NCBI GenBank assembly: GCA_965200155.1
Contig: CBDATR010000009.1
Location: forward strand, 126,287 to 190,286
DNA length: 64,000 nt
Reading direction: 5' to 3'
Source: Nitrosopumilaceae archaeon
GTDB taxonomy: Archaea > Thermoproteota > Nitrososphaeria > Nitrososphaerales > Nitrosopumilaceae
The notes under the pieces are model-generated. The model saw only the letters and a program-made list of their open reading frames with translations. It had not been told where the DNA came from and searched no databases. The position numbers and the translations under genes were made by a program. Within the stretch, counting starts at the first letter, position 1, and each line of letters begins with the position of its first letter. Shown in pieces: positions 3,285 to 33,765 of this stretch.

Positions 3285-3690
3285 GTATGAGTTCACGTGT
3301 TTTGATCACATAATAAGATAGAATGCATCCCAGTTTTTTAATTATAATTGCATTCTGGCAGCAACCTCGTTCATTACAGAAAGGCCCTGAGCCCTCCATG
3401 TCTGAACACATATGGACATGCGGCGCATGGCCCTTTCACCACCCTTTATCTGACCACTAATCTTGTGGAAAAATGCAGGCGGTGCGGAAAGTACATCCGT
3501 ATCGCTTTCACCACCCTTTATCTGACCACTAATCTTGCGGAATACCACTGCGTATCAGAACCGGTTCCACTGCTCCACTGGATTGTTGGTCGGCGCCACA
3601 CTGTCATATTCTAAGAATACGAACATGCCTGGTATGGCCTTATTCAATCCTTTTACCTTCTTTTGCAGTTCAGTATCATCAACATCATAA
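3285..3690 (-). mobile_element. IS66 right-end fragment containing a repeat-spacer-repeat insertion
   Basis: TIR GTATGAGTTCACGTGTTTTGATCA at 3285; near identical to reverse complement of 6310-6652. Confidence 0.9.
3433..3540. repeat. CRISPR-like unit 1: 36-bp duplication (3433-3468, 3505-3540) flanking a unique 36-bp insert
   Basis: ctttcaccaccctttatctgaccactaatcttg(t/c)gg twice; empty site present in other IS66 copies (e.g. 8049). Confidence 0.9.
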
Positions 3691-4664: not shown

Positions 4665-4980
4665 GTATGAGTTCACGTGTTTTGATCATTCACTAAGATA
4701 TAGGTATGAGTTCACGTGTTTTGATCATTCACTAAGATATAGATTGGTATGGTAATATTTTACTTAAATACCAAATTTGCAATAAGAATCTAATGAGAAG
4801 ACGCCGGTCCTATAAGGAATTGGAACTGGAAAATAAACTTCTTCAGGATACCCTTGCGTCTACCGAGAAAGATCTTGCACATTACAAGGAACGTGTGAGA
4901 GTATTGGAAGCATATGTGTCCCGCATCATAAAAGAAATACGAAATCTCACACAAGATTTCCAAATTATTAGGAATTATGT
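4665..4980 (+). mobile_element. Two stacked IS66 left-end stubs (4665-4703, 39 bp; 4704-4980, 277 bp)
   Basis: Near-exact duplicates of the start of the element at 4981. Confidence 0.9.
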
Positions 4981-6652
4981 GTATGAGTTCACGTGTTTTG
5001 ATCATTCACTAAGATATAGATTGGTATGACAATATTTTACTTAAATACCAAATTTGCAATAAGAATCTAATGAGAAGACGCCGGTCCTATAAGGAATTGG
5101 AACTGGAAAATAAACTTCTTCAGGATACCCTTGCGTCTACCGAGAAAGATCTTGCACATTACAAGGAACGTGTGAGAGTATTGGAAGCATATGTGTCCCG
5201 CACCACAAAAGAAATACGAAATCTCACACAAGATTTCCAAATTATTAGGAATTATGTAAATGAATTGAATGAGAAATTAGAAGAAAAACAGGGGAAAATT
5301 GCGGTACTCACAACGCGACTTAAATATTATGAGAATGCTCACTCGCCACCATCCCTTCAATCCCTCCAGTACAAGAAGCGAAAACAGGAGGAACAGAAGC
5401 GAAAACAGGGAGATAATAAGCAACAGACAGAAGCCAGTACGAAATCAGCCAAAAAGGCTGGCGCGCAAAAGGGACACAAGGGGGTTTCCCGTTCCCACAA
5501 CCCCGGCAGAGTAGTGCATCACACCTTTGAGTACACACCAATATGTGAGTGCGGCAATATGATGACAAAAATTGGTTGGAAACAACGACACATAACGGAA
5601 TTAATACCAGCCAAAATAGAGGAGACCCTTCATGTGATAGAAATGGCTGCATGCAAGTGCGGCAAAAAACAACTGGCCCCAGCAGCGGGCGTCCCAAAGA
5701 GTGGTAGTTTTGGGGTTCAATTATGTGGTGCCATCACCGCATTACGCGCAGAAAAGATTCCAATAAAACGCATACCTGTAATTTCGAGGGATCTCTTCGG
5801 CCTAAATATATCGGTGGGTGCAGTAAACAACATAATTGCCAGGGCCGCCGATGCATGTGAATCATTTATGGAAACAATTCATGAGAATATAATAAAATCA
5901 CCCAGCATTCATGTGGACGAAACTGGTATATCACTGGCGGGTAGGCGTGGCTGGGTATGGGGGATGCGAGCCGAAGAGTGGATGATGTCCATATATGACA
6001 AAAGTAGGAGTTCAAATGTAGTGAACAAATACCTGAACGGTTACCAGGGAGCGATAGTAACGGACAGGTACGTTGTGTACCGCCGGTTTGATGACGGTGG
6101 GAAGCACCAGTTGTGTTGGGCGCATTTATTGCGCGATACCCAGGCATTACATGCAGGATTCTATATCGATCCCGGTGCTCAGGACGCCCGGATCAAACTT
6201 GACAACGACCTGAAAGGATTGTTCCGGAGCGCACGGGAATCCCTGAATCACTGCGGGCCGTCCGCGCAATTACGACACTCATTTGAGACAGGAGCAGATG
6301 CATCAGTACTGTGATGTTGATGATGCTGAACTACAAAAGAAGGTAAAAGGATTGAATAAGGCCATACCATGCATGTTCGTATTCTTAGAATATGACTGTG
6401 TAGAGCCCACCAACAATCCAGCGGAGCAGTGGAACCGGTTCTGATACGCAGTGGTATTCCGCAAGATTAGTGGCCAGATAAAGGGTGGCGAAAGGGCAAT
6501 GCGCCGCATGTCCACATTCGTATCATGTGTTCAGACATGGAGGGCTCAGGGCCTTTCTGTTATGAACGAGGTTGCTGTCAGAATGCAGTTATAATTAAAA
6601 AAACTGGGATGCATTCTATCTTATTATGTGATCAAAACACGTGAACTCATAC
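4981..6652 (+). mobile_element. IS66-family (ISBst12-type, single ORF) insertion sequence, 1672 bp
   Basis: 24-bp TIRs GTATGAGTTCACGTGTTTTGATCA; TnpC-like ORF only. Confidence 0.9.
5070..6595 (+). pseudogene. IS66 TnpC-like DDE transposase, frameshifted near 6300 and with a stop at the 6430-6442 scar
   Basis: Coiled coil, NAHSPPS, GAQKGHKG, Zn ribbon, IHVDETG, VTDRY, HQLCWAHLLR, then PTNNPAEQ in another frame. Confidence 0.9.
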
Positions 6653-7900: not shown

Positions 7901-8304
7901 GTATGAGTTCACGTGTTTTGATCATATAATAAGATAGAATACATCCTAGTTTTTTAATTATAATTGCATTCTGGCAGCAACCTCGTTCATTACAGAAAGG
8001 CCCTGAGCCCTCCATGTCCGAACACATATGGACATGCGGCGCATGGCCCTTTCACCACCCTTTATCTGGCCACTAATCTTGCGGAATACCACCGCGTATC
8101 GCAGAGTCTGCTCCGCTGGATTGTTGGTGGGCTCCACACTGTCATATTCTAGGAATACGAACATGCCTGGTATGGCCTTATTCAATCCTTTTGTATGAGT
8201 TCACCTGTGTCTAAATTTACGCACAACTGATCGCGACAGTTAGTGTGATTTGTGCACAAGATTCCGGAAGACGTTAACTCATACATCCTTTTACCTTCTT
8301 TTGC
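7901..8304 (-). mobile_element. IS66 right-end fragment (unscarred, empty site) with MITE-A at 8193-8284
   Basis: Reads PTNNPAEQTLRYAVVFRKISG; MITE TSD ATCCTTTT. Confidence 0.9.
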
Positions 8305-8551
8305 GTATGAGTTCACGTGTTTTGATCATTCACTAAGATATAGATTGGTATGACAATATTTTGCTTAAATACCAAATTTGTGATAAGAATCTAATGAGAA
8401 GACGCCTGTCCTATAAGGAATTGGAACTGAAAAATAAGCTTCTTCAGGATACCCTTGCGTCTACCAAGAAAGAACTTGCACATTACAAGGCAGGGGCCAT
8501 GGGCCGCCTTGTCCTACGTCTTGCGGCTACCGATAAAGATCTTGCACATTA
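8305..8551 (+). mobile_element. IS66 left-end fragment containing a repeat-spacer-repeat insertion
   Basis: TIR at 8305; cttgcg...cttgcacatta duplicated at 8454 and 8520. Confidence 0.85.
8454..8551. repeat. CRISPR-like unit 3: 36-37 bp duplication around a 29-30 bp GC-rich insert; second copy truncated
   Basis: Compare empty sites at 4853 and 5130. Confidence 0.7.
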
Positions 8552-9475
8552 TACCTTATGCGCATGATTGACAATAACAGCCCATGTTGCTTCAAACTGG
8601 GGTGTATTTTATGGCACACAATCAGTCAAGCATGAACAATGTGAATGGCACCTGCCAGCACTAACGTATGCCGTGATTGCAAATGTCATGTAGTGGGGTG
8701 ACCGGATCTTGATGACGTATATCATGAGTGAGCTAAATGGTTACCACAAAACCCATTAATTTAGTGGATTTTCTGATGAGTAATATTCGAATTATAATAA
8801 CACGGAAATTATGGACAGATATTTTTCAAAAATTTCTTGTATCTGGTATGCTTGTGCATAATGTGTAAATTATGCAACCCGGATACTACGAGTAGATCTT
8901 CCCGGAATTCCTCACGACTACCATCATATACCTGACTTAATCTACGATATACCTTTAGCATTCGAATTACATTCTCGATTAATATGCGCCTTTTTGATAC
9001 ATATTGGCTGTATTTCCTTTCAGTTTTAGTGAGTGATTCCCTACCCCTGTATGGAATTATGACCTTTGCGCCGGGTAGGAAGTCTTTCATCCCCTGGTAT
9101 CCTGCATCTGCTATTACTGTTATCTTATCGGATGGTGGCGTGGTTGATTCTTTTAGGGACTTGCCCCATTTGCCGCCAAGGGGAATATCATTCTTGAATA
9201 TGCCATAATCGTGTCTTTTTCCCTCATATACTCCACTTACGTGAATTATCAGTCTTTTCTTGTTTGATGTTATCTGTACGTTATACGTGTGGGTTTTTTG
9301 TTTACCAGAGTACATTGCCTCCTGATTTTTTTCAGGACGTTGTACGCGTACATGTGTCCCGTCAGTCTTTATCTCCCCTCCGGCTCGACCGGGAACAATT
9401 TCCTTAAAGTCGGGTGTTGACTTGATTTGTGATATTGCTTTTGCAACGGTATCGGCCGTTGGAAGTATCTTGATC
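8550..9475 (-). pseudogene. IS5-family (ISL2-like) element, DDE C-terminal half plus right end
   Basis: IKTDGTHVRVQRP, YSGKQKTH, GKRHD, IADAGYQG, RILIENVIRMLK. Confidence 0.85.
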
Positions 9476-27200: not shown

Positions 27201-27573
27201 TCCTGATTTGGTTTCTTTGAATGGTTATTCGTATTCTCCGGATATTATTATGATTGATAATAATGTAGTTGATGTTCCGACTATGTCTATGTTAGTTGCT
27301 AATTTGCATACTTGCTATAAGATGGATTTCTTTGTTGATCATGAGATTTGGAAGTTGCGTGAATCTAAAAAATTATTTTCTGTTTATGGTGGGTCTATTG
27401 TTCGCATATGATGATTATCTTGTCGTATATTTCTTCCATCCATGTTTTGTATAGATCTGTATTATCTTTATTATACATAATAATATATGAATCTATCATA
27501 TATATAAGTGTGAAAAATTATTTTTGGATCTATATTAGACCTTATGCGCATGATTGACAGTAACAGCCCATGT

Positions 27574-28235
27574 GTATGAGTTCACGTGTTTTGATCATAT
27601 AATAAGATAGAATGCATCCCAGTTTTTTAATTATAATTGCATTCTGGCAGCAACCTCGTTCATTACAGAAAGGCCCTGAGCTCTCCATGTCTGAACACAT
27701 ATGGACATGCGGCGCATGGCCCTTTCACCACCCTTTATCTGTCCACTAATCTGTATGCCGTATTTGGCAAGATAACACCCTTGGCCAAATTCACCTTTCA
27801 CCACCCTTTATCTGCCCACTAATCTGTATGAGTTCACCTGTGTCTAAATTTACGCATAACTGATCGCGACAGTTAATGTGATTTGTGCACAAGATTCCGG
27901 AAGACGTGAACTCATACACTAATCTTGCGGAATACCACTGCGTATCAGAACCGGTTCCACTGCTCCGCTGGATTGTTGGTCGGCTCCACACTGTCATATT
28001 CTAGGAATACGAACATGCCTGGTATGGCCTTATTCAATCCTTTTACCTTCTTTTGTAGTTCAGTATCATCAACATCACAATACTGATGCATCTGCTCCTG
28101 TCTCAAACGAGTATTGTAATTGCGCGGACGGCTAGCAGGGATTCACGTGCGCTCCGAAACAATTCTTTCAAGTCGTTGTCAAGTTTGATCCGGGCGTCCT
28201 GATCACCGGGATCGATATAGAATCCTGCATGTAAT
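27574..28235 (-). mobile_element. IS66 right-end fragment with repeat-spacer-repeat unit and MITE-A (27826-27917)
   Basis: TIR at 27574; MITE TSD ACTAATCT. Confidence 0.9.
27722..27830. repeat. CRISPR-like unit 2: 36-bp duplication (27722-27757, 27795-27830) flanking a unique 37-bp insert
   Basis: ctttcaccaccctttatctg(t/c)ccactaatctgtatg twice. Confidence 0.9.
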
Positions 28236-33334: not shown

Positions 33335-33765
33335 GATGATACTGAACTACAAAAGAAGGTAAAAGGATTGAATAAGGCCATACCAGGCATGTTCGTATTC
33401 CTAGAATATGACAGTGTGGAGCCGACCAACAATCCAGCGGAGCAGTGGAACCGGTTCTGATACGCGGTGGTATTCCGTAAGATTAGTGGCCAGATAAAGG
33501 GTGGTGAAAGGGCCATGCGCCGCATGTCCATATGTGTTCAGACATGAAGGGCTCAGGGCCTTTCTGTTATGAACGAGGTTGCTGCCAGAATGCAGTTATA
33601 ATTAAAAAAACTGGGATGCATTCTATCTTATTATGTGATCAAAACACGTGAACTCATACGAATTATGTATGAGTTCACCTGTGTCTAAATTTACGCATAA
33701 CTGATAGAACCGGTTACCAGTTAATGTGATTTGTACACAAGATTCCGGAAGACGTGAACTCATAT
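33335..33765 (+). mobile_element. IS66 right-end fragment (33335-33659) and MITE-A variant (33667-33765)
   Basis: Similarity to other copies. Confidence 0.88.

Follow-up and report, generated by a model that had tools for sequence, protein, structure and literature searches.

A spacer-sized insertion in an IS66 end as a probable off-target product of the resident type I-G CRISPR integrase in a Nitrosopumilaceae archaeon

The window analyzed here is a stretch of 64,000 nucleotides (C9:126287-190286; C-numbers denote contigs) of G000, the 2.38-Mb assembly of a Nitrosopumilaceae archaeon with a completeness of 87.6%. At positions 8454-8553 of the window, a left-end fragment of an insertion sequence (IS) of the IS66 family carries a short direct duplication around an insert. 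This repeat-insert-repeat unit is very probably the product of off-target spacer integration ("neo-CRISPR") by the archaeon's resident type I-G Cas4-Cas1 fusion and Cas2, the adaptation proteins of its CRISPR system (short palindromic repeats, clustered and regularly interspaced). Most likely it is one of about 60 such misfires, and the genome an unusually rich natural record of CRISPR adaptation going astray.

The unit and its immediate surroundings are composed as follows (window coordinates; TIR, terminal inverted repeat).

8305..8328, forward strand: left-end TIR of IS66, an exact copy of the 24-mer GTATGAGTTCACGTGTTTTGATCA; this copy of the element is a 249-bp fragment only.
8394..8553, forward strand: 5' part of the transposase reading frame, with its ATG at 8394, which traverses the ectopic unit in the N-terminal coiled-coil region.
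8454..8489, forward strand: first, TIR-proximal copy of the pseudo-repeat (R1), 36 bp, beginning with CTTGC.
8490..8519, forward strand: ectopic spacer S_c in its 30-bp form, GCAGGGGCCATGGGCCGCCTTGTCCTACGT, derived from a 36-bp spacer by loss of 6 bp.
8520..8553, forward strand: second copy of the pseudo-repeat (R2), which ends after 34 bp, cut by another repeated element (CCTTATGCGCATGATTGAC...).
8554..8590, forward strand: end of that other repeated element, which truncates the IS66 fragment; the identical end sequence adjoins the TIR at 27542-27573.

The duplication of 36 bp that starts with CTTGC at 8454 and encloses a 30-bp insert, given as 36-37 bp around 29-30 bp in the first-pass annotation of this DNA, can be read directly off the sequence. 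R1 and R2 differ at five of their 34 shared positions (7, 13, 15, 21 and 33), one more than had been counted there. The insert had also been flagged as shorter than its counterparts; the length of 30 bp is correct, and the anomaly is explained by the deletion, since other copies of the IS carry S_c in a 36-bp form. The composite of the IS66 left fragment, S_c and the truncating element is present twice with identical sequence (window 8305-8700 and C24:55002-55400), so the copy at 8305 belongs to a larger duplicated or transposed segment.

The dimensions of the unit correspond to those of the resident CRISPR array, which lies 53 kb upstream of the window (C9:71011-92087) and comprises 289 repeats of 36 bp terminating in ATTGAAGG. 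Its 288 spacers are mostly 36-38 nt long (249/288; 37 nt in 101, 36 nt in 85 and 38 nt in 63), and the modal period is 73. The last repeat of the array is degenerate, which places the leader at the cas2 side. Upstream of the array, C9:68770-70419 encodes an open Cas4-Cas1 fusion of 549 aa that spans the full Pfam and NCBIfam models (Pfam Cas1, 3.4e-91, and Cas4, 1e-18; NCBIfam Cas4g/Cas1g, 710.7 bits, cut-off 560) and is the sole Cas1 in the assembly; Cas2, also confirmed, stands beside it. Downstream of the array, on the other strand, are Cas3g, Csb2, Csb1 and the I-G Cas3-extension protein, with NCBIfam scores of 709.1, 284.5, 72.8 and 276.6 (cut-offs of 400, 45, 38 and 65, respectively). 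The Cas4-Cas1 fusion, a Cas3 with a C-terminal HD domain, Csb1 and Csb2, which together define the type I-G gene set, are thus all present. A search for csx17/Cas8g (TIGR04113) gave no match in the 87.6%-complete assembly, and the same model matched none of the 14 control genomes either; an IS (DDE_Tnp_4) occupies the expected csx17/Cas8g position. The type I-G (formerly I-U) adaptation module with a Cas4-Cas1 fusion has reportedly been studied in Geobacter sulfurreducens, whose system is said to have the same gene set (Cas4g/Cas1g, Cas2, Cas3g with C-terminal HD, Csb1 and Csb2), 36-bp repeats and spacers in the mid-30s. In contrast, the host here is a thaumarchaeal sponge symbiont, and the ectopic inserts are without a clear TTN-type protospacer-adjacent motif (PAM).

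Several irregularities were observed in the array itself. A 57-nt spacer resembles two spacers minus a repeat, and two adjacent spacers are identical (C9:75391-75484 and C9:82664-82771); in three other pairs, the spacers are identical in part and widely separated within the array. At C43:128228, a lone 36-mer resembles the repeat, with 3 mismatches.

The properties expected of a neo-CRISPR locus are found in the 8454-8553 unit and its companions. The duplication at 8454-8553 has the length of the resident repeat, 36 bp, while the units at right IS66 ends are shorter at 31-33 bp. Inserts have the length of resident spacers and carry no terminal repeats of their own, and the genome in which they lie encodes intact Cas1 and Cas2. 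Finally, about half of the inserts are copied from elsewhere and the targets occur unoccupied elsewhere, S_c itself being an insert for which no source was found outside IS copies.

To place the unit in its genomic context, the whole assembly was scanned for direct repeats of at least 28 bp with periods of 40-140. Repeat pairs numbered 22, 115, 121, 74 and 22 at periods 71 to 75, real array included, against 0-10 at every other period; most of this peak is the real array, and the remainder consists of isolated units. Eukaryote-like satellite contigs were excluded from the unit counts, and four artefacts, tandem repeats or miniature inverted-repeat transposable elements (MITEs), were removed at clustering. 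The excluded type of sequence is seen in contigs C2, C4, C6, C8, C26, C32 and C40, which are short, rich in microsatellites or satellites and eukaryote-looking, and are probably sponge host DNA binned with the archaeon. In total, 79 isolated repeat-insert-repeat units were retained, with periods of 72 (31 units), 73 (19), 74 (8), 75 (7), 71 (6), 66 (7, all of them the deleted S_c form) and 78 (1). Their inserts formed 65 clusters, in which S_c was over-split fourfold and a second insert, S_d, twofold, leaving about 60 distinct inserts. The distinct target sites number about 50 (54 and 56 by two clusterings, each still splitting a few sites), a figure that supersedes the two independent sites of the first-pass annotation. 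Across the 79 units the exact duplication core peaks at 36 (17 units) and 37 (20). For 24 units the insert could be traced to one source locus; their duplications measure 35-40 bp, with eight units at 36 and eight at 37, and 14/24 inserts are 36-38 long.

These measurements bear directly on a CRISPR-independent alternative, in which some process inserts about 72 nt in the form of a short genomic copy plus a compensating target duplication. The right-end IS66 units do look compensated (33+39 and ~32+41, with periods of 72-73), 72 is the commonest ectopic period (31/79), and the inserts are self-derived and without a clear PAM, all of which would fit such a process. However, the duplication stays fixed at about 36-37 bp in the 24 source-defined units and is uncorrelated with insert length (r=-0.02), so that no trade-off is visible; the overlap between duplication and insert averages 0.67 nt, under the ~1.3 nt expected from chance extension; and 33/71 units of period 71-75 have a period of 73-75. 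The dimensions are, moreover, those of the resident array, the units cluster beside cas1-cas2, and there is an overlap between one insert and an array spacer's protospacer. We therefore regard a 72-nt process as highly improbable. A casposon was also considered and rejected: casposons are large elements with TIRs and a casposase of their own, and their target duplications are about 14-15 bp, whereas the inserts here, 30-42 bp long and without TIRs, are flanked by duplications of about 36 bp, and the sole Cas1 of the assembly is the CRISPR-linked fusion.

The IS that hosts the unit provides occupied and empty versions of the same target. Full copies measure 1672-1695 bp, with a 24-bp TIR and one transposase open reading frame of 508 aa; the intact copy at window 5070-6311 encodes a DDE_Tnp_IS66 domain (Pfam 2.4e-28) and zf-IS66. 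The TIR 24-mer occurs in the window in 10 exact copies and one with 3 mismatches, against 0 expected, and genome-wide in 176 copies with at most 3 mismatches. Within the window, the following sites are informative for comparison.

3433..3537, forward strand: unit 1, at an IS66 right end, with a 33-bp duplication (3433-3465 and 3505-3537), a 39-bp insert (3466-3504) and a period of 72.
5130..5165, forward strand: unoccupied left-end pseudo-repeat in the full IS66 copy at 4981-6652, the empty-site control for the 8454-8553 unit.
8049..8081, forward strand: right-end pseudo-repeat without an insert, lying 148 bp inward of the TIR at 7901-7924, which serves as the empty-site control of units 1 and 2.
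27722..27825, forward strand: unit 2, at another IS66 right end, with a 31-32-bp duplication, a 41-42-bp insert and a period of 73.

Further empty sites in the window are found at 4853-4888 (left) and at 6462-6494 and 33478-33510 (right, both on the reverse strand). To tally the sites across the genome, all ends of this IS were aligned. The left-site 36-mer was found at 66 loci, being single in 51 and present two, three or four times in 8, 6 and 1 loci, respectively; the right site was unoccupied in 70 of its 72 loci, and the two occupied ones are units 1 and 2, both in the window and with different inserts. The unoccupied copies of both sites establish that the units are insertions. The insert of unit 1 matches C23:24952-24981 at 100% over its central 30 nt, with further copies at 92-97%, and that of unit 2 matches the single-copy locus C24:402633-402598 at 97% over 36 nt.

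Six unrelated inserts of 36-37 bp occupy the same position of the left site, where neo-arrays grow to four repeats and three spacers. S_c is present at 13 loci in total: its 36-bp form lies at C10:210309, C13:47756 and C24:501097 and, in a MITE-truncated copy, in the left end at C34:234468, and the 30-bp form, with six bases missing, is found at nine other loci. A unit of 36+36 bp is in frame, and the S_c copy at C43:69966-71705 keeps an open frame of 530 aa (508 plus 22 residues); likewise, in a copy bearing the insert S_f, the reading frame continues through 24 extra residues. Because the unit is in frame and the transposase stays open, marked copies could have kept transposing, which would account for the same insert at 13 loci.

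Since the site falls within a coding region that is heptad-like, expansion of a coding repeat in the coiled-coil N-terminus of the transposase, by replication slippage or unequal recombination, has to be weighed as well. A genuine 21-bp in-frame tandem duplication does occur nearby in about 13 copies of the IS. However, slippage would have to account for six different inserts at one position that are unlike the repeat and one another, and for the insert S_d, which has a source at C24:21285-21319 with 100% identity; it can neither import foreign sequence nor yield a 36/36 geometry at about 50 unrelated loci. As an origin of the unit it is extremely unlikely. The 21-bp duplication itself, which lies a few bases from the ectopic site in full-length copies (e.g., C10:266122-267815, encoding a 515-aa protein), is ordinary slippage, unconnected with the spacer units.

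For the preferred explanation, off-target integration, the following course of events can be proposed. Carrying a prespacer of roughly 36 bp, the integrase would attack the IS66 transposase gene at two phosphodiester bonds spaced by about 36 bp, rather than both borders of the leader-proximal CRISPR repeat, and gap repair would then duplicate the 36-bp target on either side of the insert. The resulting 72-bp unit, being in frame, would leave the transposase open, and the marked IS may have transposed on until it reached its present 13 loci. A later 6-bp deletion in the spacer would explain the form now carried by most S_c loci.

The origin of the inserts is largely the chromosome itself. Matches elsewhere in the assembly were found for 32/65 clustered inserts, 28 of them to single-copy loci and mostly at 100% over the full length. 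By comparison, 0/288 array spacers have a counterpart elsewhere in the genome, apart from a partial overlap of spacer 57 with an ectopic insert: spacer 57 and the insert at C25:4760 have 26-28 nt in common, offset by 7-9 nt, and to judge from this overlap the two look like neighbouring prespacers of one foreign DNA. We infer that the integrase often takes up self DNA, and that self spacers would be lethal and purged from the array, surviving only at ectopic sites, where the pseudo-repeats would not give rise to a working crRNA (CRISPR RNA).

The sources are unevenly distributed. Contig C10, which constitutes 22.7% of the assembly, holds 15/26 single-copy sources (binomial P=1.2e-4), spread over 28-479 kb, and replication geometry, copy number or a separate replicon could underlie this excess. 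The possibility that prespacers are drawn from near transposon ends was examined and rejected, as the sources are not nearer to transposon tips than random positions; the median distance was 2675 bp versus 1287 bp for random positions (P=0.05), a deviation in the opposite direction.

Among the sites where units land, the surroundings of the integrase genes stand out. The 10 kb upstream of the array hold five of the 65 units, where 0.27 would be expected (Poisson P=1e-5). At C9:70400-70590, a three-repeat, two-spacer unit with a 37-bp pseudo-repeat is situated exactly on the junction of the cas1 stop and the cas2 start: the cas1 stop lies in the first repeat copy and the cas2 start in the last, and both frames remain open, with about 150 bp now separating them. 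It seems that the integrase struck its own operon twice. A second IS of about 979 bp, present in about 90 copies, has two internal sites, 398-494 bp from the ends, with three and two different inserts; in the copy of this element inspected, no long open frame was seen (examples are C24:245259-246308 and C34:19372-20404). An event in a protein-coding gene is found at C22:16724, where an in-frame unit adds 24 residues to a 599-aa surface protein; the ortholog of the congener G005 does not have them. This protein-level comparison succeeded for one event; at the DNA level, the congeners were too diverged for an empty-site comparison and the locus chosen belonged to a multi-copy family.

The targets resemble the true repeat only slightly, with an average identity of 13.9/36 at 54 sites versus 13.0 for random DNA (P=7e-5). 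Position by position, the match to the true repeat never exceeded |z| of about 2.6 and no strong nucleotide preference was seen at the borders; no 6- or 7-mer enrichment in the 112 flanks survived multiple testing. The CC^CTT junction noted in the first-pass annotation is likewise not a general feature of ectopic sites.

The same annotation had attributed the unit to the transposon end, supposing that it acts as the equivalent of a CRISPR leader that positions the integrase. In explicit form, a factor at or near the TIR (transposase, a chromatin protein or bent DNA) would position the integrase 148-149 bp inside the element and make the IS66 end a preferred cradle of arrays. The offsets on which this proposal was based, 149, 148 and 148, are correct for the boundaries used there, and boundaries based on identity put the starts of the right-end units at 146-148. 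A start of both IS66 sites at 148-149 bp from the TIR has a probability of about 0.4% by chance (two sites, 1.7-kb element), although the coincidence was noticed post hoc. The left site was, moreover, hit independently at least three times and extended three more times, and in all seven multi-spacer loci S_c, the oldest spacer, is TIR-distal. The 9-mer GAATTGGAA is found at -41 to -33 in the real leader and, at nearly the same distance, at -37 to -29 in the left IS flank, and the local alignment of left flank and leader scores 16 versus 11.6 +/- 1.9, a marginal result reached in 9/300 shuffles. In addition, leader-bound archaeal histones of Pyrococcus furiosus favour integration at the first repeat (PMC13748974).

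However, outside the two IS66 sites the distance of a unit from the nearest GTATGAGTTCAC tip is arbitrary, ranging between 65 and about 12,000 bp without a peak at 148; hits in the second IS fall 398-494 bp from the ends. The 30 bp that flank ectopic sites resemble the leader no more than random DNA does (11.35 vs 11.41 of 30, P=0.62), either IS end has a registered identity of 25-29% with the real leader, and the right end is unlike the leader, its alignment score being reached in 101/300 shuffles. Words resembling GAATTGGAA occur in 15/112 flanks versus 9.5 expected, and the exact 9-mer was not found at other sites. The polarity of S_c reflects only three later acquisitions, an outcome expected about 1 in 6 times by chance, and the distal repeat copy, with its 3-5 substitutions, could simply be a poorer target. 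The IS66 sites are not hot per copy, with three de novo events in 66 left-site loci and two in 72 right-site loci. A leader role of the IS end is thus quite improbable; the CRISPR-type reading of the unit stands, as duplication and insert lengths match the resident array and Cas4-Cas1 and Cas2 are intact, while the cause assigned to it does not agree with the distances and flanks. The repeated hits at the IS66 sites are better ascribed, in the main, to the roughly 70 copies of a moderately permissive sequence than to the IS end as a leader.

In view of the archaeal histone result (PMC13748974), a version in which chromatin positions the integrase may be retained at low probability. We also consider unlikely a scheme in which the IS66 left end would be a working proto-leader, with the IS nucleating and disseminating CRISPR-like arrays and the integrase steered about 149 bp inside the TIR by the GAATTGGAA word (at about -35) and/or by phased histones or transposase. 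If this were true, spacer addition on the TIR side, together with transposition copying the growing array, would constitute a natural route from transposon to CRISPR array. The other suggestion made in the first-pass annotation, a system marking transposons for defence, finds no footing: none of the array spacers matches any IS, so nothing points to an anti-transposon role, and the sequences inserted in the IS originate elsewhere in the chromosome.

A number of observations weigh against off-target integration by Cas4-Cas1 and Cas2 as the origin of these units. No clear PAM was detected at the flanks of the 24 single-source protospacers, where TTN occurred in 6/24 with both strands considered and no dinucleotide was outstanding; if these prespacers were processed by Cas4, such an outcome would not be expected of a Cas4-dependent system. 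For want of a PAM motif, the ectopic units could not be oriented. The right-end IS66 units deviate from the 36/36-38 rule, with duplications of 31-33 bp and inserts of 39-42 bp. The ectopic periods are shifted to 72 compared with the array mode of 73, a shift attributed to the putative survival of in-frame units. The position of both IS66 sites at 148-149 bp from their TIRs is left unexplained by the copy-number argument. If interference is broken, csx17/Cas8g not having been found, the purge of self-targeting spacers from the array would have to be historical. Lastly, the agent itself is deduced from dimensions and context, which point to catalysis by Cas4-Cas1 and Cas2.

Off-target integration by CRISPR integrases has precedents. 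Neo-CRISPR loci were described by Nivala et al. 2018 in E. coli with a type I-E system over-expressing Cas1-Cas2, as cited in PMC7054753, PMC11788318, PMC6698737 and bioRxiv 10.1101/148544; in the last, the natural evidence, from two other species, is called 'circumstantial'. As described there, the E. coli loci share with the units described here a spacer-length insert in a repeat-length duplication of non-CRISPR DNA and the reuse of pseudo-repeats, which leads to small arrays. In contrast to E. coli, the events reported here are natural, with no over-expression, archaeal and linked to a type I-G Cas4-Cas1 fusion; they amount to about 60 inserts in one genome, half of them traceable to the organism's own chromosome and some amplified in an active IS. 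In vitro, P. furiosus Cas1-Cas2 performs off-target full-site integration at repeat-like plasmid sequences (PMC6698737). In both cases the attack sites are one repeat length apart, the targets weakly repeat-like and a leader dispensable; the in vitro targets are plasmids measured against a 30-bp repeat, whereas the units here are fixed in the genome and follow a 36-bp ruler. The present case belongs with these as a natural, archaeal, numerous, largely self-derived and partly IS-borne instance of known neo-CRISPR integration. Our literature search turned up no publication on a genome that holds events of this kind by the dozen, nor any such report from Thaumarchaeota or for type I-G.

Off-target CRISPR integration is thus already established in the laboratory, and this genome adds about 60 natural events with known targets, half of them with known sources. 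It makes testable which targets the type I-G Cas4-Cas1/Cas2 accepts when no leader guides it, and how a raw, unselected prespacer pool (half self, no clear PAM) compares with a purged array (0/288 self). It also renders the mutagenicity of CRISPR adaptation accessible, given units in a restriction-modification nuclease gene, the cas1/cas2 junction, a surface protein and transposases, and illustrates that an active IS can carry an ectopic unit along and amplify it.

The affiliation of the organism is in line with a sponge association. A housekeeping protein is 72-76% identical to those of sponge-associated Nitrosopumilaceae metagenome-assembled genomes (Thaumarchaeota archaeon TS and Cenarchaeum sp.), and the public runs containing the locus are labelled sponge metagenome; the best relatives of Cas4-Cas1, at most 51% identical, come from unrelated phyla and are uninformative for taxonomy. 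Cas4g/Cas1g scored above the cut-off in 7/61 sampled Nitrosopumilaceae, G000 included. To look for comparable units in relatives, the cas neighbourhoods (22-40 kb) of four family members were inspected. In one of them, G071, up to six candidate units with periods of 69-75, including a three-repeat unit, lie within about 12 kb around cas1 (G071:C1:2985600-2994900). They share the period of that genome's own type I-G array, which has at least 279 repeats and a modal period of 71; the DNA is GC-rich and of low complexity, which renders some of the candidates doubtful. The other three inspected neighbourhoods contained no candidate units.

Public sequence data were also consulted for individual loci. 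The unit at C9:65224 is present in Logan contigs of runs from two studies. Among the Logan-contig joints listed, none with a 70-75-bp skip, as expected of an empty allele, was seen, the contigs breaking at the duplications. Logan contigs of two metatranscriptome runs, both from one study, cover cas1 and cas2, coverage that does not establish transcription.

Near the array, at C9:64563-65912, a HaeIII-like restriction endonuclease and a D12-class methyltransferase exist as fragments only, and two ectopic units (C9:64791 and C9:65224) as well as MITEs lie in or between these gene fragments. At C24:352093-352300, two units are staggered, the target of the second overlapping the last 14 bp of the second repeat copy of the first.

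As to the IS itself, the single DDE_Tnp_IS66 transposase, the TIRs and the 8-bp target duplications, the latter seen at insertions of MITEs carrying IS66 tips, assign it to the IS66 family. Compared with single-ORF IS66 elements (ISBst12-like; ORF, open reading frame), it has a length of about 1.67 kb, one ORF and a 24-bp TIR, and is accompanied by a 92-bp MITE with the same tips; it is an ordinary member, and its novelty is limited to the role as landing pad and vehicle for ectopic spacers. Two copies of the MITE border the sites discussed above.

8193..8284, forward strand: MITE of 92 bp that has tips of the IS66 type and lies within the adjacent right-end copy of IS66, with a target duplication of 8 bp (ATCCTTTT).
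27826..27917, forward strand: 92-bp MITE directly after unit 2, with the target duplication ACTAATCT.

This MITE is very abundant, with 1419 12-nt tips (at most 1 mismatch) in the genome, approximately one per 1.7 kb, and some of its copies hold an internal insertion.

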